A DNA stretch of 64,000 nt. Source: Parcubacteria group bacterium Greene0714_7 (GTDB lineage: Bacteria > Patescibacteriota > Minisyncoccia > Phycocordibacterales > Phycocordibacteraceae). Both the position numbers and the translations under genes were made by a program. The notes beneath the pieces were generated by a model that had not been told where the DNA came from, searched no databases, and saw only the letters and a list, made by a program, of their open reading frames with translations. Positions 11,150 to 47,964 of this stretch are shown piece after piece (positions within the stretch are counted from its first letter, which is position 1; each line of letters begins with the position of its first letter). The stretch is taken from the NCBI GenBank assembly GCA_007378985.1, contig VMHB01000002.1, positions 27,320 to 91,319 on the forward strand. The letters are read 5' to 3'.

Positions 11150-11169
11150 TGTATGATATATCATACAGA
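11150..11169. promoter_or_regulatory. Palindromic operator-like box TGTATGATATATCATACAG
   Basis: 18-20 nt palindrome 22 nt upstream of the MBL RNase start. A near-identical copy sits at the ComEC start (47938..47957). Confidence 0.5.
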
Positions 11170-11193
11170 CATCTAAGGTAGCCATAGCGCGGA

Positions 11194-11250
11194 AGAATTA
11201 CCACACCCTCACATATACGATATATCGTATATGTGAGGGTGTGGTAATTC
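11194..11250. repeat. 57-bp perfect palindrome (GAATTACCACACCCTCACATATACGATATATCGTATATGTGAGGGTGTGGTAATTC)
   Basis: Arms of 28 bp pair without a single mismatch. The centre ACGATATATCGT shares the GATATATC core with the operator-like box. Confidence 0.9.
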
Positions 11251-11263
11251 TCTTTGTTCATAT

Positions 11264-11297
11264 AAAAATCCGCCTTTGATATATTCAAGGGCGGATT
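11264..11297 (-). terminator. Rho-independent terminator downstream of ndk (minus strand)
   Basis: Stem aatccgcc...ggcggatt followed on the minus strand by a TTTTATAT run. Confidence 0.55.
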
Positions 11298-11310
11298 TAG
11301 AAGGATCAGT

Positions 11311-11444
11311 GACGGAGTATTAACCTTAGAGCCGAAGCTCCAGGTGGGTGCTCGCAGCATCTCGCGCATCGGATTCTCCGGAGAGATTCACCAGCGCGGA
11401 GCGATATAAAGCTCCCTAAAGTTTTTCAACGAGGTTAATACTCC
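11311..11444. ncRNA. Candidate structured RNA element bounded by 15-bp inverted repeat (gacggagtattaacc / ggttaatactccgtc)
   Basis: Perfect 15-bp arms enclose about 105 nt rich in internal palindromes (ctccggag, gcgcgcatc...). No convincing ORF and no family recognised. Confidence 0.3.
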
Positions 11445-11551
11445 GTCACTAACCCCTCCCTCCATTCTAGCAGGTTAGCCACTAGTGGTTAGGGTTTAGG
11501 GGAAAACAAAAGTGCATTCTCCCTAATGGCTAAAAACTAAACCCTATTGGC

Positions 11552-12187
11552 TTATTCAAGGATTCCATCCAAATTCACATCGTAGAGAATTTGCTCCTGG
11601 ACGATACGGTATTTCAATATTTCTTCGGGCTTAAACCACACAGCAATTTCACGTGATGCTTCTTCTGGGGACTCTGAACAGTGGACGAGGTTTCTAACGG
11701 CACGACTCTGTACCGATGAATGGTCGTAAGAATCCACAGTGTAGTCACCACGAATAGTTCCAACATCTGATGTCTTTGGCTCTGTTGCACCCACAAGTTT
11801 CTTCACAACGGCTACTGATTCATTCCCTTCAACAACCATCATGAGTACAGGACCTGCAGTCATGAATTTCACTATTGAATCTATTATTTCTTTACCGTAC
11901 CCAAGCGCATCCTTCTCTATTGGCAGATTGTGCGTGGTGCGGTCATTTAATATCCGAGTTCCTTTTTCAAGAAACCACTTCTCATCTTTGTTGTAGTGAC
12001 GCACAAGTTGGTCTTCCGTGGCAAGACCAAATTTGAATGCAACAAATTTCAATCCTGTTCGCTCTATGCGCTTCATTATCTCTCCGATAAGAGAACGCTG
12101 TACTGCGTCAGGCTTCAATATAATAAGCGTACGCTCATTTTCAAATTGTGCATTGGTGTTCATTGAAGCGACTATAGCATTCTGCAA
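11552..12187 (-). CDS. ndk: Nucleoside diphosphate kinase (extended form)
   Basis: Conserved NDK core (RTLIILKPDAVQRSLIGEIMKRIERTGLKFVAFKF...) and the active-site region (NLVHCSESPEEASREIAVWF). Confidence 0.8.
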   Translation of the reverse strand: MQNAIVASMNTNAQFENERTLIILKPDAVQRSLIGEIMKRIERTGLKFVAFKFGLATEDQLVRHYNKDEKWFLEKGTRILNDRTTHNLPIEKDALGYGKEIIDSIVKFMTAGPVLMMVVEGNESVAVVKKLVGATEPKTSDVGTIRGDYTVDSYDHSSVQSRAVRNLVHCSESPEEASREIAVWFKPEEILKYRIVQEQILYDVNLDGILE

Positions 12188-12202
12188 GGCGAAACGCCAT
12201 GC

Positions 12203-12222
12203 GAAGGGGTTAGGGTTTAGAG
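12203..12222 (-). repeat. CCCTAA-like repeat copy (minus-strand ctctaaaccctaaccccttc) about 15 nt upstream of ndk start
   Basis: Same motif family as the rplT copy, oriented with the downstream gene. Confidence 0.7.
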
Positions 12223-12244
12223 AAGAACGAATTCAAAGCCCCTT

Positions 12245-12271
12245 GATCCCTGCGGATCCGATGAAGCGTCG
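12245..12271 (+). repeat. Two-hairpin UNCG element copy a (GATCC-CTGC-GGATC + CGATG-AAG-CGTCG)
   Basis: It shares structure and sequence with the copies at 54170..54196 and 43817..43843, with compensatory base changes between copies. Confidence 0.65.
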
Positions 12272-12300
12272 CCTAAACACTAAACCCTGTCCACTAACCC

Positions 12301-15186
12301 CTACTGCTTCTGGTTTTCTCGCATCTGATTATACTTTTGGTGAATATCAGCCTCCACAGCTTCGCGGGCTCGACCGTAGCGTTGATACGAAATCTGTTTC
12401 AATGCATCAATGTTCAAGAAGTCACCAGGGATAAATGGAATAGTCTCAATAGTAAAACCGGGGGTAGGTTTTCCTCCAGCAAGGAGCTTCAAATACGAGT
12501 GGAAGTTGTCAATTTTCAGGAAGTCGGAAACCTCAAAGCCTGGAAATTGTTTCGCAATATACTCAGCATCATCGGGACCTACACGAAACACTGCCATGGT
12601 ACCAACGTTACCGAATACTGAGTCTTTAATTTTTGGAAGGAGCTGAGAAACATACTGGTGTGCCATCGTCATAGAGAGGCGAAATTTGCGTGCCTCAGAG
12701 AGAATTGTGGAAATAGTATCGGTCGTAATGTTTTGGAACTCGTCAATGTAGAGATAGAAGTTCGGAGGATTCAAATGCAAATACTCCGTACGCGCAAGTG
12801 CGGTCATCATTATTTTCCCAACAATCACAAGACCAATCAAGTTTGCATTTACATCCCCTAGTCGGCCTTTGGACAAGTTCACAAGAAGAATTTTCTTGTT
12901 GTCCATAATGTCCTTGAAATTAAAGGCCGAGCGTTGCTGACCTATGATGGGGCGCATAATTTCGTTTGCGATGAAGATGTCGAACTTTGAGGTGATATAT
13001 GGAACCACGTTGCGCAAATCTCCTTCTCCGCGCACATTTTCTGCAATATCTTCCCAGAAGTGCGTTACCACAGGATTCTTACAGCGAGACAATTTCAATG
13101 CGCGGAATTCATCGTCAGCCAAAACACGGGAAATATCCATCAAGGTCGAGCCAGTATCAGGATCTTCGAGCACAAGCATTGTGGCATTACGGAAGTACTG
13201 CTCAAAGATAGGACCAAATGCTTCTGGTACATCGCCATATAATTTCTTGAAAATCTTAAACATTTCATCCACCACGAATGTTTTTTGTTCAGGGAAGCGT
13301 GGATCATACTCAAGCATATTGAGCCCCATTGGCCTTGCGGTGTATGCAGGATCAAAGTAAATGAGGTCATCGATACGATCTTTAGGAATACGGGAAAGAA
13401 TCTCCAATACATCCACGCCGTGTGGGTCAATAAAACACACCCCTTCCCCATTCTCAATGTCCTGAATAATCATGTTCTTCAGGAAGTTCGTCTTACCAGT
13501 ACCCGTTTGCCCAATGGTATACATGTGACGCAGGCGATCATCTGGAGTGAAATGAATTGGCGTTGCAATATTTGAGTAACGATTAATGCCAATGACAATG
13601 CCTTTCTCAGGAAGCCCTGGTGGCGCAGGAGCGAGCTTAGCGCTTGCAGTTTTGGCTTCACGAGATGCTGTACCTCCTGCAATAGTGAGATGAAAAATAG
13701 TTGAGAGCTCTGCCAAATTCATAGGCATGAGTGGAATCTTATGCATCAAAGGCGTTGGAGCAGCCTTGCGTGTCCATTCAAGCCACAGCTGATAGAAAAA
13801 TCCTTCGTGTGCTTGACGGTCAAACATGCGGAAGATGAACAAGCGGAGAAATTCCCGCAATTCCTTTCTACCTTTTATATGCTTAAAACGAAGGCGATTC
13901 GCTTTTGCATCTTCATACTGCCCAAAAGTATTTTCGAGTTCTGTAAGAATGGCCATTGCCCTCTCTTTGGTGCGAGCAGACGCAACAATACGTAAATTCA
14001 CTCCCACAATGACACTCTTGAGCTTTTTTGACACTGCGTCAGCCGCAAAAGAATCAATATTCTTACTATCATCCTTCTTTTTTTCTTCAGAGCTTTCCAA
14101 AAAACTAGTGAAGCCTTTGTTCAATCCCTGAAAAAATCGACGCATTGGTGAGTAATGCTCCATATACATATTTTTTCGAAATATGTCATTCGCAGAACCC
14201 TTACCTTTATTAAGTTCGTCTAAAACATAGCGAATACGCTTAGAGTGATAGTCTCCTGCTGGTGCAACGGTAATTTGAAGCGCGGCCCCCTCACCTTCTT
14301 TGGTAATTTTTGAAAGTGCTGCGAGCGTCACATTCATAGGGTCGTGACTAAACTCTTCTGATGTCTTTAAAGGAATTGGTGGCGGGCGCTGATAGTAAGC
14401 AGACGCTGCAACAGTCACACCAAATTGGTTAAAAAGATTGTAGTCATCTTTTTTTTCAACAATACGTGCACGGGGAAACATAGCAAAAATCTGCTTTTCA
14501 AACGTTTCCCGTTTTGCTCGAGGAACTGACAAATAAAAGACCGCTTCCTCTTTAGTGTGCGAGACAGCAATTTCCATTGTGAAATGCTGGAGATGAATTT
14601 TTTTGCGCTTGTGCCAATCTTTCAGGAAAATTGTATCGGGGAGAGCAACAAAAGGAATCATGCTCAAATAAAACTGCTCCATCTGCATGCAAACATCCTT
14701 AAGAGACCCCCCTGGTTTCCCTGGCGCGGCTTCAGGTACGGCTATATCCAAGAGAACAAAATCAAGAGCTACAGCGAGTGGGTCACTAGCGCTCAGCCCT
14801 GGGATTGGATGACCAGCTGTCCGGTACTGCACAAGCAGGCGATGGAAATCATCTTCAAGATGGGGATTATCAATGCGATCGAGCTCCTTCATGACAGCCT
14901 TGAATCCTTGGGTATGTAAAATACCCAACAACTCCTCCATGTCTTTGTCGTTCGAGTCAGGTGTAAGTTCAAGAATGATGCCTTGCTTCTGCTCTTGCTC
15001 TACCCCCTCTGGTGCCTCCGAAAGTGTAGGGAGAACAGATGCTTCGACAGGTAAGGCCGGATCTCCTCGATGCCCCCTTCCTCCACCACCAGAGCGCGCA
15101 GTCTCACGCAACTTCGTCAGTTGATGTTCGGGCGAGAGCTTCGCTGCTTTTGTATCAATTCCTTTGTTTGGATTAAACCCTGGCAT
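12301..15186 (-). CDS. Large P-loop ATPase of the VirD4/VirB4 (T4SS/FtsK-HerA superfamily) type with about 500-aa N-terminal extension
   Basis: Walker A GQTGTGKTNF, then FIDPHGVD (the DPKG-like motif of T4SS ATPases) and Walker B LYIDEFQN. No transmembrane segment is obvious. Confidence 0.5.
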   Translation of the reverse strand: MPGFNPNKGIDTKAAKLSPEHQLTKLRETARSGGGGRGHRGDPALPVEASVLPTLSEAPEGVEQEQKQGIILELTPDSNDKDMEELLGILHTQGFKAVMKELDRIDNPHLEDDFHRLLVQYRTAGHPIPGLSASDPLAVALDFVLLDIAVPEAAPGKPGGSLKDVCMQMEQFYLSMIPFVALPDTIFLKDWHKRKKIHLQHFTMEIAVSHTKEEAVFYLSVPRAKRETFEKQIFAMFPRARIVEKKDDYNLFNQFGVTVAASAYYQRPPPIPLKTSEEFSHDPMNVTLAALSKITKEGEGAALQITVAPAGDYHSKRIRYVLDELNKGKGSANDIFRKNMYMEHYSPMRRFFQGLNKGFTSFLESSEEKKKDDSKNIDSFAADAVSKKLKSVIVGVNLRIVASARTKERAMAILTELENTFGQYEDAKANRLRFKHIKGRKELREFLRLFIFRMFDRQAHEGFFYQLWLEWTRKAAPTPLMHKIPLMPMNLAELSTIFHLTIAGGTASREAKTASAKLAPAPPGLPEKGIVIGINRYSNIATPIHFTPDDRLRHMYTIGQTGTGKTNFLKNMIIQDIENGEGVCFIDPHGVDVLEILSRIPKDRIDDLIYFDPAYTARPMGLNMLEYDPRFPEQKTFVVDEMFKIFKKLYGDVPEAFGPIFEQYFRNATMLVLEDPDTGSTLMDISRVLADDEFRALKLSRCKNPVVTHFWEDIAENVRGEGDLRNVVPYITSKFDIFIANEIMRPIIGQQRSAFNFKDIMDNKKILLVNLSKGRLGDVNANLIGLVIVGKIMMTALARTEYLHLNPPNFYLYIDEFQNITTDTISTILSEARKFRLSMTMAHQYVSQLLPKIKDSVFGNVGTMAVFRVGPDDAEYIAKQFPGFEVSDFLKIDNFHSYLKLLAGGKPTPGFTIETIPFIPGDFLNIDALKQISYQRYGRAREAVEADIHQKYNQMRENQKQ

Positions 15187-15254
15187 ACCTAGTAGTATAA
15201 CGCGTCACTCGCGCAAAATTTTTCTTGAGTAGAAACGAGCGTGTAATATTTCTA

Positions 15255-19993: not shown

Positions 19994-19994
19994 A

Positions 19995-25912: not shown

Positions 25913-26296
25913 TTATTTCTTAGCTCCAGCCTTAGCCTTACCATCAGCAGGTGCCTTGGCTGCTTGAGCTGCTGCAATTTCAGACTCTTTCTTCTTCTGT
26001 TCAAGCTCTTTCTGCATCTTACCTCCGTGACGAGTAAATTTGGTTGTTGATGAAAATTCGCCAAGACGATGTCCTACCATTTCCTCTGTAACAAATACCT
26101 CAGGGAAATCCTTTCCGTTATGAACAAGGAAAACAAAACCAACCATTTCAGGGCTGATTTCAGATGCACGAGCCCACGTCTTAATAGGCGCTGTTGTGGC
26201 AGGCTTCTTGCCTTCAATCTTCTTTAGAAGCTTGTGGGCGACATACGGACCTTTCTTAAGTGAACGAGACATTGTTGTAGTTTTGACCCAAATCAA
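25913..26296 (-). CDS. rpsS: 30S ribosomal protein S19 (with Lys/Ala-rich C-terminal extension)
   Basis: [19 protein letters not shown]...GHRLGEF. Confidence 0.9.
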
Positions 26297-26367
26297 GTGC
26301 GCACTAAGAAAAATGCGCCCTTACGAGCTTTGGGCATACTATCCCAATCACCCACCCACTGTCAATC

Positions 26368-27169
26368 TCATTTGTGCAACCTCCGGAGGTTGCACAAATG
26401 AGACACTAAAGCCAAAATGAAAAAATTACAAAATAATACCTTGGAGCTCTTCGACTAAAAGTTTTTTGCTGGTTGTTTTAACAAAATCGGCGTAATTACT
26501 TTTTGCTGTTATAGCAAACTGCCCCGTGATGATCTCGGGCACAATGAGTCCTCCCCATCGGTTCGCATCAGTAAAATCTTGGAGTGACGACCAAGGATAC
26601 TCGGATTCCCTTCCTGACCATTCTCGTATGTCACTGGGGTTTCTATGAATATAGGCGGATGCATATAAAAGCTGGGAATCTGTTTTTACATGCACCGCTT
26701 TGTACGGACCCTGAAATACATGTCCTGAGGTTTCATACTTAGTATTATAATATTTTGTATATCCGTCAGCTACGCGTTGCATGTAGCGTGCCATTCCTCC
26801 TTCAATGGTTTCTTTGACCAACAAGTGAAAGTGGTTCGACATAAGACAAAAGCACACCACTTCCACAAAACGACCCTCAATGATGGCCTCGATATCTTCG
26901 TTAGGGACAGAAAAACCAATATCCGGAACAAAACTTTCTGTAATCCGATGTATGTTTTTAAATTGATGAGGGGATTGGAGGAATAACACATTAAAAAGGA
27001 ATCGACGCCAGTCCCCTTTTTCTTTAAAAATAGTCTGCCTGTGCGCACCGCGATTGAACACATGGTAGTACTCCCCCGGAGCGATTCCTTCTCGTGACTT
27101 TAGCAATACCTTAGCCATCAACTCAGGCTACCACACCTCTGTGCAACCTCCAGAGGTTGCACAGAGAGG
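26368..27169. mobile_element. IS200/IS605-family (RAYT-like) element: Y1 transposase flanked by matching subterminal hairpin palindromes
   Basis: Left palindrome tcatttgtgcaacctccggaggttgcacaaatga (26368..26401) and right palindrome cctctgtgcaacctccagaggttgcacagagagg (27136..27169) share the core TGTGCAACCTCC/GGAGGTTGCACA. They bracket a HUH/Y1 transposase gene. Confidence 0.75.
26426..27121 (-). CDS. HUH Y1 (IS200-like / REP-associated tyrosine) transposase
   Basis: YYHVFNRGAHRQTIF, HUH motif CLMSNHFHLLVK, and Tyr-containing YKAVHV...YIHRNPS. Longer (231 aa) than classic IS200 TnpA. Confidence 0.75.
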   Translation of the reverse strand: MMAKVLLKSREGIAPGEYYHVFNRGAHRQTIFKEKGDWRRFLFNVLFLQSPHQFKNIHRITESFVPDIGFSVPNEDIEAIIEGRFVEVVCFCLMSNHFHLLVKETIEGGMARYMQRVADGYTKYYNTKYETSGHVFQGPYKAVHVKTDSQLLYASAYIHRNPSDIREWSGRESEYPWSSLQDFTDANRWGGLIVPEIITGQFAITAKSNYADFVKTTSKKLLVEELQGIIL

Positions 27170-27197
27170 ATTTTAAAAACAAAAATCCTCCTTCGGA

Positions 27198-30100
27198 CTA
27201 AAATTCATCGAAGCGCGGAGTAACACCTATGGTCACTGACTTTGAACTCGGCACCCCACCGGTTAAACAATTCATTGTGTATGTACTTTGTTGATTTATG
27301 ATCACAGATTGTGCACCTGAAAAAGCGGTTGAAGAAAGTCCCGGACCTGATATTGAACATGAGTCAGGAGTGCCTACCACTCCCCATGACACCGTTGCAG
27401 GGTCACCTTGGCGAACAGTAACGGCTGGGCTAATGTTGAGAGTAATATCGGCAGGGTTTACAGTCACTGTGGCGCTTGAAGATGCACTTCGTGTACCACT
27501 AGTACAAGTGATACCGTAGGTTGTAGTAACTGGAGGGGAAACAGTAACCGAGCCCACAGTTGCACTACCTGTTGGGAAATTAGTTCCCGTACAGGAAGTG
27601 GCGTACGAAGATGTCCAGTCAATTCTAGGAGAAGTCACACCTTTAATGATCGTATTTGGTGTGGCAGTAATCAGCACTGTTGGCGTGTTCTGTATGGTGC
27701 CAGCCCCACAGGTTGCAGTAACCGCACCTGTACCTGATGTCACAATAACTGAAGCCGATTTCGTACCGGCGGTACCGTATGTTTTTGAAACAGTTGCACC
27801 GGTGCCGGTCAGCCCGTCAGTGCCACTCCACACATAGGTATACGAGCCTACACCACCAGAAGGTGTAACGGTCCATATTAATGAGTCTCCAACATACCCC
27901 GTGCTTGGTGACGGAGAGCACGAGGCTGTGAGCGTGCCTGGGTTCACGGTGAGCGGTGTCCATGCACTGCAGTTATCAAGTTCGTTGGATTCATTCACTT
28001 CATTGAGCGGAGTGTCGGCACAAAAACGCATCTGGTACGCACCCGGCGAAAGAAATGTATAGCTTCCTGTTTCTGTACCACTTCCACCGGCTGAAATCGA
28101 TATTCGACTCAAAGCAATTTTTATTGATGTATTAGCTTCAGCAAAGTGAATAAAGAGACTGAAGATGCGGCCCCAGATAGAATCTAATTGAGTGAGATAA
28201 TTATTAAGACAGGCGCTGTCCGAAGCGAGGCACACATACATTCTTGAACCAAATACTGGAGTCGCTACTCCACCAGTATTATTAACACCAGCAGTAAATG
28301 TGCTGTTTACTCCTGCCGTCACACTAAGCGGTGTCAGGCTACCGGTGGTTAGATCAGACAAAGAAACACCAACCACCACAGAATTGGAGCAACTCGCTGT
28401 TATTGATGCCGGTGCCGATGCCGTTGCAAGACCTCCAAAATAATTATGTCTCGTTGTGTTACCGCTAGTGGAGGTTTTCGAGGCAAGAGAAGCATTTGAA
28501 TATGCTTCGTAGTGATAGTAGGTATTAACTGGCTGTCCAACCGAATTCAAAGTCTCTCGTACATCAACACTACAGCAACCGCCCGCAGGTGTTATTTCCG
28601 AACACACTCCTGCCATGGCAGAGTTAGCGCCACCCGTAAAGCCCACACCATCCTCTGTGCTGCCATAACTACCTACTTTTGTACCTCCAGAGCAGTGCTT
28701 TTCTCCTTGGAGCGTAACAGAAGTTACACCGGACGGACTAGTAACAGTAACTGAAGCTGTTTTTGTGCCAACTGTTGTATATATTTTTGAGATCGACGCA
28801 ACAGTACCAGAGAGACTATCAGTACCACTCCATGAATACGTGTACGAACCAGCTCCCCCTGATGCAGATGCAGTCCAAGTCACAGGACTACCGGTATATA
28901 CGCTCGTTGGAGATACTGAACATGACCCCGAAAGAACGCCGGAGGAGGTTGAATTTACTTGAACATTTGCGGTAGCAAAAGCGGTCTGGGGAGTCACGGC
29001 AGGGGAAGCGCCGACACATGAATAGATATCAGTATTGATGTTGCATGCACTGATGGTGTTCACCTTACATGTTGGGATGCTACAAGCCTTTCCTGTTGGA
29101 TTCGGAGGGCAAGTAGGTACGCTTGAATATGCCTTGTTTGGATCTGTGAGTGGGCAAGCAAAATCGCTTATATCAGACTCTGAGTATTGCCATATACCTG
29201 ACGATACTGCGCTAGCTCCTGTACAAGTAATAGAATAGTTTGTGGTGGCACTTAACGCCCCGGTAGAAATAGAGCCTGATGTATTCCCGCCAGTTTCAAA
29301 TCCACTACCAACACAAGAAACTGCATTAGTTGAGGACCATGTGAGAGTAGCTGAAGATCCAGAATTCAAACTTGTTGGAGTTGCAGATAACGAAACAGTC
29401 GGTGTGGGGATTGAGCTTACCGTGACTGTTTGAGATGCCGACGCAGACCCACCAGCGCCAGTACATGACACAAGATAGCTGGTTGTTTGTGATGGAGTAA
29501 CTGATACAGAGCCTGCGTTTGCTGACGCTGTAGAAAAATTAATGCCTGTGCATGATGTTGCATTCGTTGAACCCCATGTGAGCGTTGACGATGAACCTAC
29601 TACAAGTGAAGTTGGGTTTGCAGAAAGTGTTGCAGTTGGTGCAATAATTGGAGCGCTGACGGTCACCGTTGCTGAAGAAGAAACTGTTTGAATACCATCA
29701 GTGCAGGTAATCGAGTATGTTATTGAGGAAGCAGGTGAAACAATAAGCGAACCTGCAGTAGCGCCTCCAGTTGAAAAATTAGTACCCGTACATGAGGTCA
29801 CATAGTCCGAAGTCCATGTTAGAAGAGATGAACCACCACTGCTTATAGAAGACGGTGTTGCAATAATTCCTACATATAGAGTTGTAGGTTCCTCGATACA
29901 ACCATTCCCTTCATCAATGCGCGCGACTTGATACGAACTTTGCACCACATAACTATCTCCTCCATACACCGCACGAAACGCCGCTTCACCTGCACTACCA
30001 GGAGGGAAAGGGTTAGTCACTATTGTGTAGTCATACTCCCATGTCGTACCACTACACCCCCCAACCTCGCCACCTCCTCCTCCATCAAGGTTCGGGCCAG

Positions 30101-30212
30101 CATGTGTTAACTGAGGAACGGCACTAAACAGAACAATTGAAAAAAAAGCACCCATAAAAAAGATTTTAAAAGCGGGGAAAGCAAACCGGCGGAAGGCTAT
30201 CATTGAACCCAT
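27198..30212 (-). CDS. Giant secreted Cys/Ser/Thr-rich multi-repeat surface protein (paralog A), Ig-like two-Cys repeats + PKD-like modules, C-terminal ...TPRFDEF
   Basis: Signal peptide. About four 85-aa repeats of the form TLTWxSTNATSCTGxxFSTGG...VSVxPxxTTxYxxxCTGxGG...TVTV. Two YTY(S/V)WSGTD(S/G)L(S/T)G PKD-like motifs and Cys-rich linkers. Paralogous to the adjacent gene. Confidence 0.8.
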   Translation of the reverse strand: MGSMIAFRRFAFPAFKIFFMGAFFSIVLFSAVPQLTHAGPNLDGGGGGEVGGCSGTTWEYDYTIVTNPFPPGSAGEAAFRAVYGGDSYVVQSSYQVARIDEGNGCIEEPTTLYVGIIATPSSISSGGSSLLTWTSDYVTSCTGTNFSTGGATAGSLIVSPASSITYSITCTDGIQTVSSSATVTVSAPIIAPTATLSANPTSLVVGSSSTLTWGSTNATSCTGINFSTASANAGSVSVTPSQTTSYLVSCTGAGGSASASQTVTVSSIPTPTVSLSATPTSLNSGSSATLTWSSTNAVSCVGSGFETGGNTSGSISTGALSATTNYSITCTGASAVSSGIWQYSESDISDFACPLTDPNKAYSSVPTCPPNPTGKACSIPTCKVNTISACNINTDIYSCVGASPAVTPQTAFATANVQVNSTSSGVLSGSCSVSPTSVYTGSPVTWTASASGGAGSYTYSWSGTDSLSGTVASISKIYTTVGTKTASVTVTSPSGVTSVTLQGEKHCSGGTKVGSYGSTEDGVGFTGGANSAMAGVCSEITPAGGCCSVDVRETLNSVGQPVNTYYHYEAYSNASLASKTSTSGNTTRHNYFGGLATASAPASITASCSNSVVVGVSLSDLTTGSLTPLSVTAGVNSTFTAGVNNTGGVATPVFGSRMYVCLASDSACLNNYLTQLDSIWGRIFSLFIHFAEANTSIKIALSRISISAGGSGTETGSYTFLSPGAYQMRFCADTPLNEVNESNELDNCSAWTPLTVNPGTLTASCSPSPSTGYVGDSLIWTVTPSGGVGSYTYVWSGTDGLTGTGATVSKTYGTAGTKSASVIVTSGTGAVTATCGAGTIQNTPTVLITATPNTIIKGVTSPRIDWTSSYATSCTGTNFPTGSATVGSVTVSPPVTTTYGITCTSGTRSASSSATVTVNPADITLNISPAVTVRQGDPATVSWGVVGTPDSCSISGPGLSSTAFSGAQSVIINQQSTYTMNCLTGGVPSSKSVTIGVTPRFDEF

Positions 30213-30254
30213 TGTACAGGGAATTTACACCGATTGTTAAAAGAAGTGTGGGAA

Positions 30255-33020
30255 CTAAAACTCTTCGTACGCTGGAAGCAGTTTAACTGTTATTGATTTT
30301 GAGGTGACTCCTCCGCCTGTGGTGCATGAGAGCGTATAGGTGCTTTCTTGACCAATGACCACAGACTGTGAACCTGAAAAAGCGCTTGATGAAAGTCCCG
30401 GACCACTTATGAGGCACGTATCAGGACTTCCTGATACTGACCAACTAATGGTTACTGAATCATTACGACGAACTGATGTGTTTGGGGATGCAGTAAGCAC
30501 TAGATCGGCCACATAGACCGTAACAACCGCGCTCGAATAAACACTCTTTGATCCATTCGTACAAGTAAGATCGTATGTAGTGGTGTTAGTTGGTGTTACT
30601 GATACAGCACCAGATGTTTGACCTCCTGTTGCAAAGCTAGTGCTCGTACACGATGTTGCGTTTGTCGAAGACCATGTAAGTTGCGACGCGTTTTGCCCGC
30701 GAATAATTGAGCTCGGGGTCGCGCTTAAAAGTGCCGTAGGAGAAGCTGAAATTGAGGTTGAATTGCTACACGCCTGAGTGACAGACTGTGTACCTGAAGT
30801 AATACTTACAGAGCCTACTTTGGTTCCCACTGTTGTGTATTGCCGTACAACCGACTGCGTTGTTCCTGACAGACCGTCTGTACCACTCCACGAATACACA
30901 TATGAACCAGTGCCCCCCGCAGGAGACGCCGTCCACGTTATGTTGTCGTTGGTGTATCCAGAAGTAGGTGTGACTGCACAAGAAGTGCTAAGTGGTGAAC
31001 TTGAAACAATCACCGCAGTCCACGCACCACAATTATTTGTTTCATTGGACTCGTTGATAACACCGGAACCCGCAGATGAATTTTTGTCGGCGCACGCTCG
31101 CAGGTACCACGTGCCTGCAGAAGGGAACGCGTACGAAAGCGTAGTTACATCAGATCCGTTCGCTGAAATGTTTGGTGACGTGTCGGTACCAATATCTACC
31201 GTGTTCGCACCGCTTGAAGATGTGGCTCGCTGAAAAAGATTAGTGAACCCGCTACCTGTCGCAGGGTTACCGACGTTCGTGATTGTTGCAGAAAATGTTT
31301 TTGTGACATTAGTAACTGCGGATGTCGGTGAAATAGCGCCCGCAGTAAGATCTGACAAAACGACACTCACTGCAACTGAATTTGAACAACTTGCCGTTGT
31401 TGACATGGCGTTTGTTTTGAAACCTGCGGAATAATAGTAATTGTTCGTGTTACCTCCTGAAACAGTAGAATACGAATCCTTGGTTACAAGAGATGCGCCG
31501 GAGTAGGATGTCCATTGATAATACGTGTTGACCGGTTGTCCGCCCGAACTCAACACTTCTTTTGCGGACACACTGCAACACCCTCCAGCTGGAGTGATAC
31601 TGTCACACATTGCACTGTCACCGCTTGAATTATATACAGCACCATCTTCGGTAGTACTTTGACTTGCAACCAACGTGCCACCGGAACATTGCCTGTTGCC
31701 TTGGAGATTGGTTGTGCTCGTGTTGGTCACAGTAACCGAACCAGTTTTCGTACCAGTTATTGAGTATGTTTTTGAAATTAACGCACTAATTCCCGACAAT
31801 CCGTCCGTACCACTCCACGAATACGAGTAGACAGGTACACCGCCAGACGCAGATGCATTCCAAGTAACCGTCTCTCCCGTATACACGCTTGTGGGAGACG
31901 CCGTACACGATGCCTCAAGAGGAGCATTTGAAACGGTAACGTATGCGCTGCCTGATACACTTGGCGGAGGCGACGTTACTTGGCACGAATAGAGCTCTGT
32001 AGTAATACCACATCCAGGACCTATCGTATTTACCTTGCAAGTTGAAGGTGGCGATGTACATGATTTACCTTGAGGACTTGCTGGGCAATCTGGTACAGCG
32101 CTATACACATTGTTGTTGGACGATACAGGACACGATAGATCCGAGTAATCACTTTGATAGTATTGCCATGTGCCCGTACCACCACCCGAAGAACCGGTGC
32201 ATGTAACCGTGTAGTTTGTACTAGCGTTTGGTGTGATGGTTACCGAGCCCGATGTGGTACCGGCGGTGTCAAATTGAGTGCTCGAACAATATGAAGCGTT
32301 GCTTGAAGTCCACGAAAGGGTTGTGCTTCCGCCGACAGCAACGGTAGAGGGTGACGCGGTCAACGATATACTTGGCGACGAACTTGGGGGCGTTACCGTA
32401 AGAGTTGCCGAAGCAGTTGCCGTACCTCCCGCACCAGTACAACTTACTGAATAGTTGCTGGTTTGCGGTGGTGAGACGGACACTGTACCAGAGAGTGCCC
32501 CGCCCGTACTGAACCCCGTTCCCGTACATGATGTTGCATTTGTGGAACTCCACGTGAGTGCAGATGAGTACCCTGCCGTTATAGAAGTCGGTGACACAGA
32601 AAGTGTGGCAACCGGTGTAGGAGAAACATTTGTGTAAGTGAGGGTGTATTTTTTGCTCGCACTCGAAATACCTGTGCCACTGTACAGTCCATAAGAAACT
32701 CCCCACGCAGACGGAGTGGATACCAGCGATGCCTGAATACAGTAGGTATTCGGAGTATTGTAATTACTTGGCAAGAAAGAGCCAGTAATAAATCCCCATG
32801 CGAGCACCGACCACGACGGCGCTGGTCCATCGCTACTATCTCCGCCAAGTTCTGAAATAAATGCCCCTGTACATTGTCTATTTGCAGTGGTGACTGCACC
32901 ACTGCTCGTTGGTGGATTGGGATACGAGTATGCATGTGCCAATCCCGACACCCCAAAAACACCTACAACAAAACTTGCAAAAATTACAGTTTTTATTAGT
33001 GAGGTAACCGATGGGCACAT
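30255..33020 (-). CDS. Giant secreted Cys/Ser/Thr-rich multi-repeat surface protein (paralog B), C-terminal ...LPAYEEF
   Basis: Same domain order as paralog A. The start is placed at the internal Met giving the signal peptide MCPSVTSLIKTVIFASFVVGVFGVSGLAHA; the ORF track extends to 33080. Confidence 0.75.
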   Translation of the reverse strand: MCPSVTSLIKTVIFASFVVGVFGVSGLAHAYSYPNPPTSSGAVTTANRQCTGAFISELGGDSSDGPAPSWSVLAWGFITGSFLPSNYNTPNTYCIQASLVSTPSAWGVSYGLYSGTGISSASKKYTLTYTNVSPTPVATLSVSPTSITAGYSSALTWSSTNATSCTGTGFSTGGALSGTVSVSPPQTSNYSVSCTGAGGTATASATLTVTPPSSSPSISLTASPSTVAVGGSTTLSWTSSNASYCSSTQFDTAGTTSGSVTITPNASTNYTVTCTGSSGGGTGTWQYYQSDYSDLSCPVSSNNNVYSAVPDCPASPQGKSCTSPPSTCKVNTIGPGCGITTELYSCQVTSPPPSVSGSAYVTVSNAPLEASCTASPTSVYTGETVTWNASASGGVPVYSYSWSGTDGLSGISALISKTYSITGTKTGSVTVTNTSTTNLQGNRQCSGGTLVASQSTTEDGAVYNSSGDSAMCDSITPAGGCCSVSAKEVLSSGGQPVNTYYQWTSYSGASLVTKDSYSTVSGGNTNNYYYSAGFKTNAMSTTASCSNSVAVSVVLSDLTAGAISPTSAVTNVTKTFSATITNVGNPATGSGFTNLFQRATSSSGANTVDIGTDTSPNISANGSDVTTLSYAFPSAGTWYLRACADKNSSAGSGVINESNETNNCGAWTAVIVSSSPLSTSCAVTPTSGYTNDNITWTASPAGGTGSYVYSWSGTDGLSGTTQSVVRQYTTVGTKVGSVSITSGTQSVTQACSNSTSISASPTALLSATPSSIIRGQNASQLTWSSTNATSCTSTSFATGGQTSGAVSVTPTNTTTYDLTCTNGSKSVYSSAVVTVYVADLVLTASPNTSVRRNDSVTISWSVSGSPDTCLISGPGLSSSAFSGSQSVVIGQESTYTLSCTTGGGVTSKSITVKLLPAYEEF

Positions 33021-33027
33021 AGAAATT

Positions 33028-33687
33028 TTATTGTGGGGTAACGACATACGGCGCTGATGACACAAATGTAATGGCGCCATCTATCGAATACAAATTAAAA
33101 TTATTTGGACGACCAGTGTGGATTGCAAACATAGTTGGTGACACAAACCCGATACCACTAACATACGTAGGGAGGGCAGGAATTTTCAACGAACCAAAGT
33201 ATGATACGCTCGCGCCACCCTCATACACCTTGAACACATCAAATTGGTTGGTGATCTGATTAAACAATACCGCAGCACTTCCATCAGGAGCAACCGCACC
33301 AATATCAGGAGTAATACCTTCTTGTGCAATGAGGACAAGCTCATTTTTTGCTGTTGGATTGCGCCAAACTAGCCCTTTCTCGGTAACTACAAGAATCATA
33401 CCGCTCGGAAGTGTGACTTTATTTGAGACTGAGAGACTTTGTTGTGGTGCCGTGGCAGTACGCACTTCATTCGCAGGATTCAAGACATACCATTGATACG
33501 TATCAGTTTCATAGATTGAAAATACTTGATCTGCCATTCGCTCGTCCACCTCTTTTGATACCCATTCAGAAAAAAATGTACGCAAAATAGGAACTGCATA
33601 CAGAAGACCGCAGAGTGCACCTAAAATGAGTGCAATAGAAAGTGTGATACGCATTGGTCGAGAGAGTCTCTGTAATATCTGACTCAT
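33028..33687 (-). CDS. Hypothetical membrane-anchored (N-terminal TM) extracytoplasmic protein co-located with the giant protein pair
   Basis: 219 aa with TM helix ITLSIALILGALCGLLYAV then a soluble domain. No family recognised. Confidence 0.55.
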   Translation of the reverse strand: MSQILQRLSRPMRITLSIALILGALCGLLYAVPILRTFFSEWVSKEVDERMADQVFSIYETDTYQWYVLNPANEVRTATAPQQSLSVSNKVTLPSGMILVVTEKGLVWRNPTAKNELVLIAQEGITPDIGAVAPDGSAAVLFNQITNQFDVFKVYEGGASVSYFGSLKIPALPTYVSGIGFVSPTMFAIHTGRPNNFNLYSIDGAITFVSSAPYVVTPQ

Positions 33688-33762
33688 ACTCTAAATAGTC
33701 TACAATGAAAAATAGCACTCCTTACAAAAAACACCCCGCATGATGCGGGGTGTTGATGGATA

Positions 33763-34626
33763 TTACGCGCCTTTCGTTCTTTTTTTCCCGACACGACGAC
33801 GAGAAACAATGAAGGGATTCGAGTATTTCTTTGGAGTTCGTGTTTTCTGTCCCTTTCCTGATGGCTTGCCCCACATGGTGCGTTGTCTTCGGTGACCACG
33901 GCCTTGGCGACCTTCACCTCCTCCGTGTGGATGGTCAACAGGGTTCATGGCAGTACCACGAACCGTTGGGCGAATACCCATGTGACGAGCACGACCTGCT
34001 TTACCAATGATGACAAGGTGATGCGCATCGTTTGAAACTTCACCAATAGATGCCCATGCAGTATCAACTACTTTACGTACTTCAGTTGAAGGGAGTTTAA
34101 TTTGAGCGTAGCCAGCATCGAGCGCAATGAGTTCAGCGTGGTTACCTGCGCTTCGTGCCATTTTTGCACCGCCGTTTGCATGTACTTCGATATTGTAAAT
34201 GAATGTGCCGATTGGAATGTTCTTCAAAGGAAGTCGGTTACCGGGAGTGATGGGAGCAGTTTCTGAAGTAATGACCTTATCGCCAACTTTCAAAGACTTA
34301 GGCGCGAGAATGTACCTTCGCTCACCGTCAATGTCCACGATACGAGCAATGAATCCTGTGCGAGTAGGATCGTACTCAATGTGCTCAACTTTGCCTGGAA
34401 TATTCTTCTTAGCAAACATAAAATCAACTACGCGCATCTGCTGTTTGTGTCCACCTCCTTGGTGACGGGTCGTGATGCGACCAAGCGAGTTTCTACCTGC
34501 GTGGCTTTTCTTTCCTTTTGTCAAAGACTTCAACGGCTTCCCTGTCGTCAAGACATCACGATAACGAATCACGCTCATGTGGCGAGTAGATGCGGTTCGT
34601 GCTTTGTAATTTCGTGTAGTAGACAT
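33763..34626 (-). CDS. rplB: 50S ribosomal protein L2
   Basis: HKQQMRVVDF...GGEGRQGRGHRRQRTMWGKPSGKG... Confidence 0.95.
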   Translation of the reverse strand: MSTTRNYKARTASTRHMSVIRYRDVLTTGKPLKSLTKGKKSHAGRNSLGRITTRHQGGGHKQQMRVVDFMFAKKNIPGKVEHIEYDPTRTGFIARIVDIDGERRYILAPKSLKVGDKVITSETAPITPGNRLPLKNIPIGTFIYNIEVHANGGAKMARSAGNHAELIALDAGYAQIKLPSTEVRKVVDTAWASIGEVSNDAHHLVIIGKAGRARHMGIRPTVRGTAMNPVDHPHGGGEGRQGRGHRRQRTMWGKPSGKGQKTRTPKKYSNPFIVSRRRVGKKRTKGA

Positions 34627-36466: not shown

Positions 36467-36511
36467 TATACACAAAGCCGTAGAAAGATGCAAGAGAAAC
36501 AAAAAACCGCC

Positions 36512-36540
36512 CTATTGGGCGGTTTTTTGTTTCTCAAGGA
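36512..36540. terminator. Bidirectional rho-independent terminator immediately after rpsJ (aaaaaaccgccc-tatt-gggcggtttttt)
   Basis: Perfect GC-rich stem flanked by A6 and T6 runs. Confidence 0.7.
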
Positions 36541-43775: not shown

Positions 43776-43816
43776 TTAAAGAGGTTAAATTTCAGATTTA
43801 AAGCTGAAAGCTGAGT

Positions 43817-43843: not shown

Positions 43844-43860
43844 CCTGATACCTACTTATT

Positions 43861-44577: not shown

Positions 44578-44595
44578 GTAATAGGAATCCTCCCT

Positions 44596-44630
44596 AAACC
44601 CTAGTGGCTAACAACTAAACCCTGAGCGTG
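44596..44630 (+). repeat. CCCTAA-like repeat copy (cctaaaccctagtggctaacaactaaaccctgag) upstream of rpmB
   Basis: Motif family. Confidence 0.7.
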
Positions 44631-44671
44631 GGATTTACTTTTCATTTTTAGGATGGTATCCTCTAAAAACT

Positions 44672-44914
44672 ATGGCTAAGGCATGCGCTGTAACTGGTAA
44701 ATCATCTCTCGTCGGAGGGAGGTATTCAAATCGCACTCGTGCGACGCAGTACAACCCATGCGGTAAGGTACGCCGTAAGGCAAACCTACAAAAGCACAAA
44801 ATCTTTGTGCCTGAGCTTAATAAGCACATTTCGCTTCTTCTTTCAGCTCGTGCTGTAAAGACCATTGCAAAGCGCGGTGCTTTTAAGACCCTCAAGAAAG
44901 CTAATATTATTTAA
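44672..44914 (+). CDS. rpmB: 50S ribosomal protein L28
   Basis: MAKACAVTGKSSLVGGRYSNRTRATQYNP... Confidence 0.85.
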   Translation: MAKACAVTGKSSLVGGRYSNRTRATQYNPCGKVRRKANLQKHKIFVPELNKHISLLLSARAVKTIAKRGAFKTLKKANII

Positions 44915-44923
44915 CTACTCTTT

Positions 44924-44965
44924 AAGGTAGACGGTACGCCGTTTATCTTAGGGAGTTTTTTTATT
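44924..44965 (+). terminator. Terminator-like hairpin after rpmB (acgg-tacg-ccgt, UACG tetraloop, then T-run)
   Basis: Hairpin plus agtttttttatttt. Confidence 0.4.
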
Positions 44966-45128
44966 TTGAACTATATGTCAGAAAAAAGATTTCCACCAAA
45001 CAGAAGCCGCTCACTCCTCGAAGAGTGGGTAGTGAGAGTCTGCAATTTGTGCAGTAAAGAACGCCCCGCATATATGTTCTCGCACAAAAGAAATGAGTGT
45101 GTGATTTGCGTTCCTGCCTAAACACCCG

Positions 45129-45965
45129 TTAGTATTTGGCAACCTTAAGAGTATGGCCATCTGATAGGAAAGTGACTCTACCATTCTTGCAGGTATCAAG
45201 AATGGGAATATCGAGACTCTGAAATAGATCTCCAACTCTAGATGCTGGGTGCCCGTACTTGTTATCGCATCCACGAGAAAATATTCCGTACTCTGGATTA
45301 ACTGCTTTCACAAATTCAGGTGCACTGGAGTTTTTTGAACCATGGTGCCCAGCTTTCAAAATAGTGCTCTGGAGATTTTTACCATCAATCGAAACTAAAT
45401 ACTTTTCAATAACCTGCGGAGAATCCCCGTTTAATAAAAATGATGTATTCCCATACACAACACGCATGACGATGGAGCCCGTGTTTGTTTCAATTTTGGA
45501 TACATCCCTATCTGGAAAAAGAATATCTGCGTATGCCCCGCCGCCGAGAATTAACCGCATACCCCGCCTAGCAGTAATTTTTTTCACTCCTGATTTTTGT
45601 ACTGCCAAAACAGTAGCCTTTGTTGCTTTGGTATCGTTCGGAATGTCTGGCTCCAAAAATGTTTCCACCCTGTAGCGCTCAAATACATCAGGAATACCTC
45701 CAAGATGATCTTGATCTGGATGTGTCTCTACCATCGCATCAATAGAGCGATCAAACATAGGCATCACACTTCCTAGTTCTCTAAGCACTGATTTGTCAGG
45801 AGGGCCGGCATCAACAAGCATTTGAATGCCTGTCGGACCTTCTATAAAAATAGAATCCCCTTGCCCAATATTTAAAAAAGAAACTTTGAGTCCGTGGGGA
45901 ATAGGAACCGTCCAGACAAAAATGTTTCCAAAAATGAGTAGCCCGATCAAAAAAATGCGTGCCAT
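45129..45965 (-). CDS. Stand-alone ComEC-type metallo-beta-lactamase domain protein (membrane-anchored)
   Basis: LNIGQGDS and THPDQDHLGG, typical of the ComEC C-terminal MBL domain. The start is trimmed to the Met preceding the TM helix to avoid overlap with the SOD gene. Confidence 0.7.
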   Translation of the reverse strand: MARIFLIGLLIFGNIFVWTVPIPHGLKVSFLNIGQGDSIFIEGPTGIQMLVDAGPPDKSVLRELGSVMPMFDRSIDAMVETHPDQDHLGGIPDVFERYRVETFLEPDIPNDTKATKATVLAVQKSGVKKITARRGMRLILGGGAYADILFPDRDVSKIETNTGSIVMRVVYGNTSFLLNGDSPQVIEKYLVSIDGKNLQSTILKAGHHGSKNSSAPEFVKAVNPEYGIFSRGCDNKYGHPASRVGDLFQSLDIPILDTCKNGRVTFLSDGHTLKVAKY

Positions 45966-46015
45966 ACTCACAATGATATACTGACCCCAGATTAAACTAA
46001 CTCCGCAAGCTTGGT

Positions 46016-46591
46016 ATGCACACTGCAAAAAAATTCAACTTTGGAAACTTAGACGGTATTTCGCCAAAACAGCTTGAAGTACACATCAAACTCTATGAGG
46101 GCTATGTAAAATTCTTAAACACACTTGAGGAAACTGCTGTAGACTTAAAAAAAGATTCTGAAAAAAACGCATACGCTCTCGCTGAAGTAACTCGACGCAT
46201 CGGATTTGAGTGGAACGGCATGCGAATGCACGAACACTACTTCTCACAGTGGGAGGGAACGCCCGCCCCTATCGAAGGCCCTCTGAAAGATGCGCTGGCG
46301 GCACAATATGGCTCATACGAATCTTGGGAGAACGAATTCAAAGCAGTTGGCATGATGCGTGGTATTGGATGGGCGATGCTTTCGTATGACGCAACAACCA
46401 AGAACTTTCTCACTCACTTTGTTGCTGACCACGAGCTAGGACAACTCAATGACACAAAGACAATCCTCGCTCTTGATATGTGGGAACACGCCTACATGGT
46501 GGATTACACTCCAGCCGAAAAAAAGACCTATATAGAGGCATTCTTTAAAAATTTGAATGGCGCTGTGGTTCAATCACGTTTCCCTTCCTGA
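46016..46591 (+). CDS. sodA: Fe/Mn superoxide dismutase
   Basis: DMWEHAYMVDY C-terminal signature and N-terminal metal-ligand His region. Confidence 0.8.
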   Translation: MHTAKKFNFGNLDGISPKQLEVHIKLYEGYVKFLNTLEETAVDLKKDSEKNAYALAEVTRRIGFEWNGMRMHEHYFSQWEGTPAPIEGPLKDALAAQYGSYESWENEFKAVGMMRGIGWAMLSYDATTKNFLTHFVADHELGQLNDTKTILALDMWEHAYMVDYTPAEKKTYIEAFFKNLNGAVVQSRFPS

Positions 46592-47954
46592 AACGGAAAA
46601 ACAACAAGCCTGCCACTCCATACGCAAACCCAAGCACCATCAAAAGTGGCCACATCCACTCTCGTGGAATAGGGAGAGAGGCAAACGGAAGTATCCCAAA
46701 AAATGTTGCGATAGAAATAATATAAGAAAGGATTCCGTACGCAAAGATGCTTAGTGGGAAAGCGAGTACCGGAGAGACAATTGAGGTAATCGACGCAAAG
46801 AAACCAACAAACATAGCGAGCGGAACTGCGGGTAAGACAAGTGCATTTGCTGGAAGAAATACGAGAGACACTGCGCCTACAGAAAATATAAGAAGTGGCA
46901 ATACCGTCACCTGCGTTGCAAGAGTAGTTGAAACAATTTCACGAAATGGGAAATATTTAAAATCAGGAATGAACTTCAAATGGTCTGCAATTTTTGCAGA
47001 AAATAATATAAGTCCGAGCGTTGCAAGAATAGAGAGTTGGAATGAGAGATCATACAAAACAATAAACGGATTCATGACTGCCATTGTGGCGGCAGCAATG
47101 GCGAGCATACGTAGTGCTGCCTTTGGCCGATGCAAAACAGTCGCAACCATCATGAGGAGTGCCATGATGAGTGCGCGAATAGTTGTCTCAGATCCGCCAG
47201 TCATCACTGCAAAGCCAATAACAAAAACCGCAGAGAAACTATATGCAACTTTGCGTGAAAATATTTTTAGAAAAACAAAAGAAATCCACTGAATCACGAG
47301 CGCAACGTTGTAGCCAGAGAGAACAATAATGTGCACGACTCCTGCATTTCGAAATGCTCCCGTTATCTTTTCACCCAACGATTGTTTTTCACCGAGAAGT
47401 AAACCCGCAAGAAGTGCGGATTGAGGTTCTGGAACTGCACGCTCAATTCCTTTAATAAATAAATGTTTAACAGATAGAAGTCCCGCAACAATTGGATGCC
47501 CCTCTCCTGTTGCCAGTTTCGTAACCTGCGGAAATGAAATGATGTAGAGAATGTTATGTGCACGAAGATACTTTGGATAATTAAATGTTCGCCCTGAGTC
47601 AGTTTCAAAAGGCTCAGGTTTTTTAAGTTTTCCTTTTACACTAATGCGATCACCATAGACGGCAGTCTCAAACGAATCCGCAAAGAGAAGTACTCGTACT
47701 TTCTCTTGAGCAGAAACACCATTCAACTTTTGCACTTTCACAACAAGGTGTGTGGTGCGTTCACGCTGGTCAGAGTCTCTCACTACAACGCCTTCAATGA
47801 CAACACTAGTATCAACTGAGTCTTCAAAAATCGAAGGAAGTTTTTCGGGTACCAATACTGAATACACTCCTGCACCAACTACGAGCCCGACACAAAGTAT
47901 CGGCACGACATTTCGAATAAAAAAACTCTTGAAAAACTCTGTATGATATATCAT
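46545..47954 (-). CDS. comEC: ComEC/Rec2 DNA-uptake channel (membrane domains only)
   Basis: DUF4131-like N-terminus plus polytopic competence domain (VVHIIVLSGYNVALV). No fused MBL domain. Confidence 0.8.
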   Translation of the reverse strand: MIYHTEFFKSFFIRNVVPILCVGLVVGAGVYSVLVPEKLPSIFEDSVDTSVVIEGVVVRDSDQRERTTHLVVKVQKLNGVSAQEKVRVLLFADSFETAVYGDRISVKGKLKKPEPFETDSGRTFNYPKYLRAHNILYIISFPQVTKLATGEGHPIVAGLLSVKHLFIKGIERAVPEPQSALLAGLLLGEKQSLGEKITGAFRNAGVVHIIVLSGYNVALVIQWISFVFLKIFSRKVAYSFSAVFVIGFAVMTGGSETTIRALIMALLMMVATVLHRPKAALRMLAIAAATMAVMNPFIVLYDLSFQLSILATLGLILFSAKIADHLKFIPDFKYFPFREIVSTTLATQVTVLPLLIFSVGAVSLVFLPANALVLPAVPLAMFVGFFASITSIVSPVLAFPLSIFAYGILSYIISIATFFGILPFASLPIPREWMWPLLMVLGFAYGVAGLLFFRFRKGNVIEPQRHSNF

Positions 47955-47964
47955 ACAGAGTTTT
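47931..47964. promoter_or_regulatory. Perfect palindrome aaaaactctgtatgatatatcatacagagttttt at ComEC start (contains the TGTATGATATATCATACA box)
   Basis: A 34-bp perfect palindrome with the same 18-nt core as 11150..11169. It could act as an operator and/or a bidirectional terminator between comEC and rnhA. Confidence 0.5.

Follow-up and report, generated by a model that had tools for sequence, protein, structure and literature searches.

The 64-kb window analysed here (64,000 nucleotides of contig VMHB01000002.1 of Parcubacteria group bacterium Greene0714_7) contains two exact copies of the 18-nt palindrome TGTATGATATATCATACA, one upstream of a gene for a beta-CASP RNase and the other across the start codon of comEC. 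Because such boxes, or private variants of them, bracket genes for small TrpR-like proteins in other Patescibacteria, the box is best read as a repressor operator. With a probability of roughly 0.6, it belongs to a small dimeric helix-turn-helix (HTH) repressor, a Patescibacteria-specific member within the TrpR/YerC (HisR) family, and we infer that the window's own genome encodes such a regulator. As judged from sequence comparisons, the box is conserved far beyond the needs of a hairpin structure, its position is kept in orthologous loci, and its variants are strictly paired with TrpR-like genes. The initial annotation of this DNA had proposed both the shared palindrome and a dedicated dimeric HTH regulator. 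The palindrome is real, the idea of the regulator is supported by the TrpR/YerC-like family described below, and the Pfam domains agree with the gene identities given at that time. The elements concerned are:

11150-11167, no strand: box 1, a perfect 18-nt palindrome, TGTATGATATATCATACA
47932-47965, no strand: box 2, a perfect 34-nt palindrome, AAAAACTC-TGTATGATATATCATACA-GAGTTTTT, with its core at 47940-47957
9718-11091, minus strand: beta-CASP/RMMBL RNase of the metallo-beta-lactamase (MBL) fold, putative target of box 1 (Pfam Beta-Casp 105 bits, RMMBL 50 bits)
46545-47954, minus strand: comEC with DUF4131 and Competence domains, putative target of box 2 (Pfam Competence 148 bits)

By chance, 0.03 copies of the 18-mer would be expected in the window, and none of 100 shuffles contained at least two. 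The window holds no further match to the 18-mer with up to three mismatches. For the 20-mer box there is no extra site with up to five mismatches, and at six mismatches the count does not exceed that in shuffles. The density is two copies per 64 kb with no degenerate copies. In its 20-nt register (11149-11168) box 1 reads TTGTATGATATATCATACAG. It is located 10 nt from the first TTG of the RNase open reading frame (ORF; 11139) and 58 nt from the conserved ATG at 11091, which gene callers use in relatives and at which we set the gene start; the distance of 22 nt given initially has to be corrected. For box 2 the initial length holds but the position is shifted by one, to 47932-47965 from 47931-47964. 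Box 2 lies 30 nt past the rnhA stop codon and contains the comEC ATG (47954-47952, minus strand), so that ComEC begins with MIYHT. The frame from this ATG is open in a relative with 86% protein identity, in which the alternative GTG is a GTA. The box palindrome carries -10-like hexamers, TATGAT and TATCAT, on both strands. Consensus scans for sigma-70 promoters and terminators revealed nothing convincing over the boxes; at box 1 there is a weak -10 TACAAT with a poor -35.

As RNA, the two boxes behave differently. Box 1 folds weakly (-6.2 kcal/mol, z -1.8) and is a poor hairpin, so it is the sequence that has been kept there and not a structure. Box 2 folds strongly (-19.9 kcal/mol, z -7.3) and is followed by a U5 run. 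It thus looks like an intrinsic terminator, a stable stem-loop with a U run at the 3' end of a unit, which box 1 does not, and it probably also terminates rnhA.

The box CTGTATGATATATCATACAG, counted as an 18-20-mer, recurs in many Patescibacteria with GC contents of 37-55%. In the window's relatives, of which GCA_018062445.1 (labelled Candidatus Paceibacterota) and a 316-kb JGI contig are close ones, it is kept at comEC, the beta-CASP gene and folD amid diverging flanks; run SRR8863435 contains contigs identical to the window. At box 1, all 21 of 21 bases agree between the window and locus L001 (loci are numbered with an L), whose RNase is 89% identical, against 30-59% in the spacers, and the box is also found upstream of the beta-CASP orthologue in L039. 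The latter locus carries a 'Saccharibacteria' label and was dropped as evidence for deep conservation, since its RNase, 83% identical to the window's, places it in the window's clade. At comEC, L017 and L027 share the window's 20-mer without any change and have the same arrangement, and the arms show one compensatory change there, from CTC/GAG to TTC/GAA. Across 185,579 species genomes (one per species) the exact 18-mer occurs at 27 loci, nine of which (10 sites) are in metagenome-assembled genomes (MAGs) labelled Patescibacteria, Paceibacterota or Saccharibacteria; the flanks complete CTGT...ACAG in most of these 10 sites. A metagenome scan with a 19-mer added 28 loci. The exact matches outside the Patescibacteria (Lachnospiraceae, Bacteroidota, others) have no TrpR-like gene near them and were taken as chance or unrelated hairpins, and a scan of viral contigs gave a single match, within an ORF, which was judged to be chance. 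The genes with a box at or near their starts are:

comEC: window, L017, L027
beta-CASP RNase: window, L001, L039
folD: upstream in L030/L048 and L019, about 350 nt upstream in L052, within the gene in L031
ndk: L036
a methyltransferase: L033
DUF5671: L037, L044
M50 peptidase: L040
GDSL lipase: L041, L043
zincin peptidase: L045/L047
an alpha/beta hydrolase: L059
RNase HII: L065

In the MAG REEB441 (L031, 7913-7930) the exact box is part of the folD coding sequence (...LKLYDISYK...), while it is upstream of folD in other lineages.

The strongest link to a protein comes from genes that stand between boxes. The initial annotation had suggested looking for an HTH regulator with the box in its own promoter, and such a gene, a TrpR/YerC-family member bracketed by exact boxes, was found in other Patescibacteria. 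In L037 a gene for a 135-aa protein lies between two boxes and matches Pfam Trp_repressor (PF01371) with 45 bits (cut-off 27). When this protein was used as a tblastn query, the bracketing was found again in L044 (with three boxes), L040/L066 and L065, thus in five loci of four lineages. These proteins, which come from relatives and not from the window, score 32-45 bits on PF01371 and share 26-81% mutual identity. A profile search returned 1,676 homologues which, where named, are called Patescibacteria, Adlerbacteria or 'YerC'. The DNA around ten more family members was inspected, and nine of the ten genes are flanked by two to five perfect palindromes that have a common centre and differing arms. 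Taken together, 14 of 15 distinct loci have two to five private palindromes bracketing the gene, with the centre GATATATC (mostly ATGATATATCAT). This GATATATC, already proposed as the shared centre from the window alone, is accordingly invariant in the palindromes around almost every family gene, and the arms are private (GTACT.., ATT.., GGGGT.., AACTTG.., AAAAGT.., CCGT.., ACTTTG..). The only deviating locus, L076, has TTATGATATTA-TG-TAATATCATAA. The palindromes of the further members are:

L068: GTACTATGATATATCATAGTAC
L070: ATTATGATATATCATAAT
L071, at a second paralogue 3 kb away: GGGGTATGATATATCATACCCC
L073: AACTTGATGATATATCATCAAGTT
L078, three copies: AAAAGTATGATATATCATACTTTT
L079 and L080, four copies each, one imperfect in L079: AATTATGATATATCATAATT
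L081: CCGTATGATATATCATACGG
L082, three copies upstream and two downstream: AGTATGATATATCATACT
L086, the third copy cut by the contig end: ACTTTGATATATCAAAGT

Dispersed copies match the variant of the gene resident in the same locus or genome (L078, L079, and L031 with L037 in REEB441). In 14 of the 15 loci an 18-20-bp palindrome is found 1-38 nt upstream of the trpR-like start codon, and roughly half of the genes start only 1-10 nt from the 18-mer site, which leaves no room for a Shine-Dalgarno sequence. In L037 and L040 a single box occupies a gap of about 50 nt between divergent genes. The order ychF-trpR-DUF5671 is kept in four lineages (L037, L044, L076, L081), and because of this synteny the trpR-like gene is, by gene order, a stable chromosomal gene. 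In L040, box, trpR and box are located between the M50 peptidase and an MBL gene, in a neighbourhood syntenic with 38.8-46.6 kb of the window (fusA, S7, S12, M50, MBL, SOD). Gene callers run ORFs into the palindrome, where ATG ATA TAT CAT AC is read as MIYHT (variants MKYHT and MSYHT; L071 848-1294, P0084, P0116); the ATG of the box thus causes false N-terminal extensions in database proteins.

Based on its predicted structure the family has the TrpR fold. A profile search of the PDB found 3FRW (1.3e-11), with 3KOR and 3G1C at 1e-11 to 1e-8, and then E. coli TrpR (4e-3). An AlphaFold2 model of a family protein (pLDDT 83) has only TrpR and TrpR-like structures among its top 43 Foldseek PDB matches, including the operator complex 1TRO, with target-normalised TM-scores of 0.58-0.75 for nearly all of them. 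The family proteins do not reach the NCBIfam equivalog cut-offs for YerC/YecD and TrpR; on YerC/YecD (TIGR02531, the HisR equivalog) they score 22-34 bits against 42.2. They comprise 135-170 residues and have a conserved C-terminal tail, LKKKYPLHFLLFPWPK, without counterpart in TrpR or HisR. The bracketed proteins contain no catalytic domain, no S24 peptidase domain and no Y1 domain. In an alignment of ten proteins no simple rule is visible that would relate the recognition helix to the arms.

The box has the architecture of the sites of this family. TrpR and HisR bind 20-bp palindromes of the TGTA...TACA type (TGTAcTnGTnnACnAgTACA, TGTAnTArnnnnyTnTTACA and cacTTTAnnnnnnTAAAgtg), and hisR often has a site of its own upstream, with candidate autoregulation in about half of the genomes (PMC9413887). 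Like E. coli TrpR, a small all-helical dimeric HTH protein of the same Pfam family and fold whose palindromic operator of about 18-20 bp has TGTA...TACA ends and is also present at the regulator's own gene (PMC9413887), the Patescibacteria proteins are associated with a palindrome at their own promoter. However, the E. coli operator is TGTACTAGTTAACTAGTACA and not TGTATGATATATCATACA, the Patescibacteria proteins of 135-170 aa carry the conserved C-terminal tail, and their sites occur in two to five copies on both sides of the gene and at targets that are not tryptophan genes. The closest solved relatives, 3FRW, 3KOR and 3G1C, are proteins of the HisR/YerC type, and HisR (YerC) of the Firmicutes binds a 20-bp palindrome with lineage-specific consensus, an architecture that cTGTATGATATATCATACAg fits (PMC9413887). 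In contrast, the HisR consensus is cacTTTAnnnnnnTAAAgtg and its targets are histidine biosynthesis and uptake genes, whereas no his genes were seen beside a box among the loci examined, and Patescibacteria paralogues with private arms can be located close together in one genome (L071).

It is well known that the E. coli trp operator overlaps the -10 region and that bound TrpR blocks RNA polymerase. By analogy, a dimer would bind the 18-20-bp palindrome cTGTATGATATATCATACAg at sites located 1-60 nt from start codons, or covering the start as at comEC. Given the -10-like hexamers and the proximity to the start codons, this binding would block RNA polymerase. In the simplest view the box would itself be the -10 or initiation region of transcripts with a short leader or none, and the dimer would occlude it. 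In the window, one regulator would then control the gene of the DNA-uptake channel, comEC, and the beta-CASP RNase. The regulator's own gene bears the box in the relatives, as do folD, ndk and hydrolase genes, and in L037 and L040 one box would serve two divergent genes. At the 3' ends of genes the palindromic nature of the site would have allowed compact genomes to lengthen it into terminator-like hairpins, and the rnhA terminator and the comEC control site could have been packed into about 40 nt of the window in this way.

Several observations weigh against an operator. Copies downstream of trpR-like genes often face a convergent gene (L037, L068, L070), and two dispersed sites (L054, L057) are located between convergent units with no promoter to control; in the metagenome of L001, two sites of this kind follow thrS and a tRNA-Leu. 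The long private extensions of 28-58 nt at many sites exceed what a dimer would contact, the sites are all-or-none although operators are usually degenerate, and arrays of up to five perfect copies are left unexplained by the model. The closest relative, L002 (RNase 98% identical), has lost both box 1 and the 58-nt palindrome next to it. The target set is without a single clear functional theme: comEC, the beta-CASP nuclease, RNase HII, ndk and folD point to the turnover of nucleic acids and nucleotides, but the lipase, peptidase and DUF5671 targets do not fit. In addition, tblastn and profile searches found no TrpR-like gene in the 64-kb window nor in the close-relative loci examined, and about 700 kb of contigs from the metagenome of L001, if they represent one organism, contain four boxes but no bracketed gene, in a scan whose pattern needed the terminal G. 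The nearest-looking family members (P0023, P0015) belong to other lineages with other arm variants. Because assemblies break at repeats, bracketed regulator cassettes probably drop out of MAGs, and this, together with a coverage of only 64 kb, may explain why no such gene is found in the window and its clade. For many family members the only known contigs are 0.6-1.5 kb long. Assemblies end inside box 2 in L011, inside the 58-nt palindrome in L003, and inside the private palindrome in L086.

The surroundings of the two boxes contain further elements:

47995-48414, minus strand: rnhA, RNase H (Pfam RNase_H/RVT_3), whose transcript would end at the box 2 hairpin and U run
11194-11251, no strand: second perfect palindrome, 58 nt (-48.1 kcal/mol)
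11262-11298, minus strand: terminator hairpin and T run closing the upstream non-coding RNA (ncRNA) unit (-16.5 kcal/mol, z -4.1)
11302-11472, minus strand: structured, conserved, 6S-like ncRNA of about 170 nt, outside the box system

At the first site the order, all on the minus strand, is ndk, the ncRNA with its own terminator, the 58-nt palindrome, box 1 and the beta-CASP RNase; at the second it is recJ, rnhA, box 2 and comEC. The ncRNA has a 24-bp closing stem, matches 6S RNA weakly over its full length (15 bits, short of the gathering score) and adjoins the RNase gene alike in the window, L001, L002 and L039. An Rfam scan of the whole window gave no match at the gathering thresholds, and a permissive scan of 11100-11600 gave the weak 6S match and chance matches of microRNA hairpins to the 58-nt palindrome. 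This palindrome had been described as 57 bp (11194-11250). It has 58 nt and the centre TATACGATATATCGTATA, which differs from the box by four symmetric mismatches, and lies 64 nt centre-to-centre from box 1. Palindromes centred on CGATATATCG, where the box has TGATATATCA, are present in the window (11194-11251), L001 (12006-12045) and L040 (3024-3039). The window and L001 agree at all 26 positions of the 26-nt core, and the outer arms have diverged but are still palindromic. The 58-nt palindrome may serve a paralogous TrpR-like protein as its site, or else form a structural hairpin. The 961-aa protein encoded at 12301-15186 (minus strand) has weak matches to TrwB/TraG-type coupling proteins; in the relatives it matches DUF8128 and is kept beside ndk.

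Other parts of the window also contain palindromes. An IS200/Y1-transposase-like gene resembling REP-associated tyrosine transposases (RAYT; REP, repetitive extragenic palindrome) at 26426-27121 (minus strand, PF01797 33 bits) is flanked by REP-like palindromes at 26366-26403 and 27137-27166 that have TGTGCAACCTCC / GGAGGTTGCACA in common, and 26366-27166 is thus a REPtron-like unit in a Patescibacteria genome. The gene is part of an insertion of about 7.4 kb (26297-33762) that splits the S10 operon between rplB (33763-34626) and rpsS (25913-26296) and also contains a 219-aa ORF and two CARDB/PKD surface proteins of about 1000 aa each. Long perfect or near-perfect palindromes with A/T-tract flanks are located at 173-225, 36494-36535, 58984-59024 and 60997-61038; they look like bidirectional terminators and their sequence is unrelated to the box. 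The window encodes str, S10 and spc ribosomal protein genes, comEC and a pilB-like ATPase; a tRNA scan of it found none.

How far the TrpR-like family goes beyond a classical repressor is the first alternative to be weighed. It is possible, though on balance unlikely, that a phylum-wide, diversifying TrpR-fold family with private palindromes of invariant GATATATC and variable arms represents a new site-specific system. Such a system could be an insulator that works by looping or as a roadblock, ending transcripts as well as gating transcription in very compact genomes, or it could be a centromere-like or membrane-tethering system acting via the conserved hydrophobic C-terminal tail. If this were true, access to DNA uptake (comEC) and nucleic-acid turnover would be under its control in this lineage.

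We think it improbable that the palindromes are hairpins only, be it terminators, attenuators or RNA-processing sites, with a tip conserved for a reason other than a regulator. The initial annotation had named two copies in total, both acting as terminators, as the case against a regulator. The copies are neither so few nor all of this kind, yet the comEC copy, just past rnhA, is terminator-like with its -19.9 kcal/mol and U run, and relatives have some copies between convergent genes (L054, L057). Many sites are perfect palindromes of 28-46 nt with A/T tracts (window, L027, L039, L055, L057), and the compensatory arm change between the window and L027 would also be expected of a hairpin. However, a terminator needs a structure and not identical 18-20 nt across lineages of 37-55% GC, the U run is missing at many downstream copies, and the arm variants track the neighbouring TrpR-like paralogue. 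Box 1 with its weak fold is preceded by a canonical terminator (11262-11298), so that it is not required to terminate the ncRNA unit.

By analogy with other palindrome-based systems, the sites could form a non-transcriptional system, whether centromere-like, chromosome-organising or a selfish cassette, in which the copies at comEC and the RNase would be dispersed and non-regulatory; this we regard as rather improbable. The bracketing of the gene on both sides by two to five perfect copies (five in L082, four in L080), the all-or-none sites, the two paralogues 3 kb apart with different palindromes in L071, the conserved tail LKKKYPLHFLLFPWPK that is absent from TrpR and HisR, and the assembly breaks at the repeats are all in line with it. 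The window's true RAYT between REP-like palindromes shows that such arrangements exist in this genome. As in REP/RAYT units with their Y1 transposase, a gene is bracketed by copies of a palindrome that is also dispersed intergenically. In contrast to these units, though, the bracketed gene encodes an HTH protein without Y1 or other catalytic domain, the copy number is low (two per 64 kb), and gene synteny is kept across proteins that are 48-81% identical. The dispersed sites hold orthologous positions directly upstream of the same genes across genomes. The ParB-parS system has perfect palindromes of 16-20 bp as well, few per genome, widely conserved and clustered at the gene of the binder. It differs in the fold of the protein; at the boxes, moreover, there is no partner ATPase gene near, the arms are lineage-private, and the sites are located on promoters and start codons. 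DNA uptake sequences (DUS/USS) occur at a genomic density of about one per kb, and the box was ruled out as one because of its two copies in 64 kb and the lack of degenerate copies.

That the box is just a strong bidirectional core promoter with a palindromic -10, and has no dedicated repressor, is quite improbable. TATGAT and TATCAT are present on both strands, start codons as close as 1-10 nt to the box, seen at several targets and for roughly half of the trpR-like genes, suggest leaderless transcripts, and the boxes of L037 and L040 are placed in divergent gaps of about 50 nt. However, exact conservation over 18-20 nt with arms that are specific to a lineage is not a property of promoters, and both the pairing with one protein family and the copies between convergent genes would be left unexplained.

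The LexA-type SOS box or competence-regulator operator over a DNA-uptake and repair regulon, as proposed initially, is very improbable: the CTGT...ACAG ends and AT-rich centre resemble the E. coli LexA box (CTGT-N8-ACAG; PMC8565304), comEC, recJ-rnhA, the beta-CASP nuclease and RNase HII are near sites, and the trpR-like gene follows dinB-like and HhH-GPD glycosylase genes in L082 and L086, but the spacing is N12 and not N8, no recA, uvr or lexA was found beside any of the about 40 box loci examined, the gene with the box in its own promoter is of the TrpR family without a LexA/S24 peptidase domain, and the targets in relatives include folD, ndk, a methyltransferase, GDSL lipase, zincin and M50 peptidases and DUF5671 besides RNase HII. 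In PMC7739468 a paper on the Patescibacteria LexA motif is cited among the cases of direct-repeat LexA motifs.

A full-text literature search, with most subscription journals outside its coverage, found no description of the motif or of a TrpR/YerC regulator in the candidate phyla radiation (CPR). We also know of no described comEC regulator in Patescibacteria/CPR. Taking the box as the operator of a TrpR-like repressor provides a concrete candidate pair, a TrpR-like protein of 135-170 aa and a 20-bp box, with a specificity code in which the centre stays the same and the arms differ. ComEC mediates natural transformation in Saccharibacteria (PMC10633639), and the box at comEC would thus link the candidate regulator to competence.

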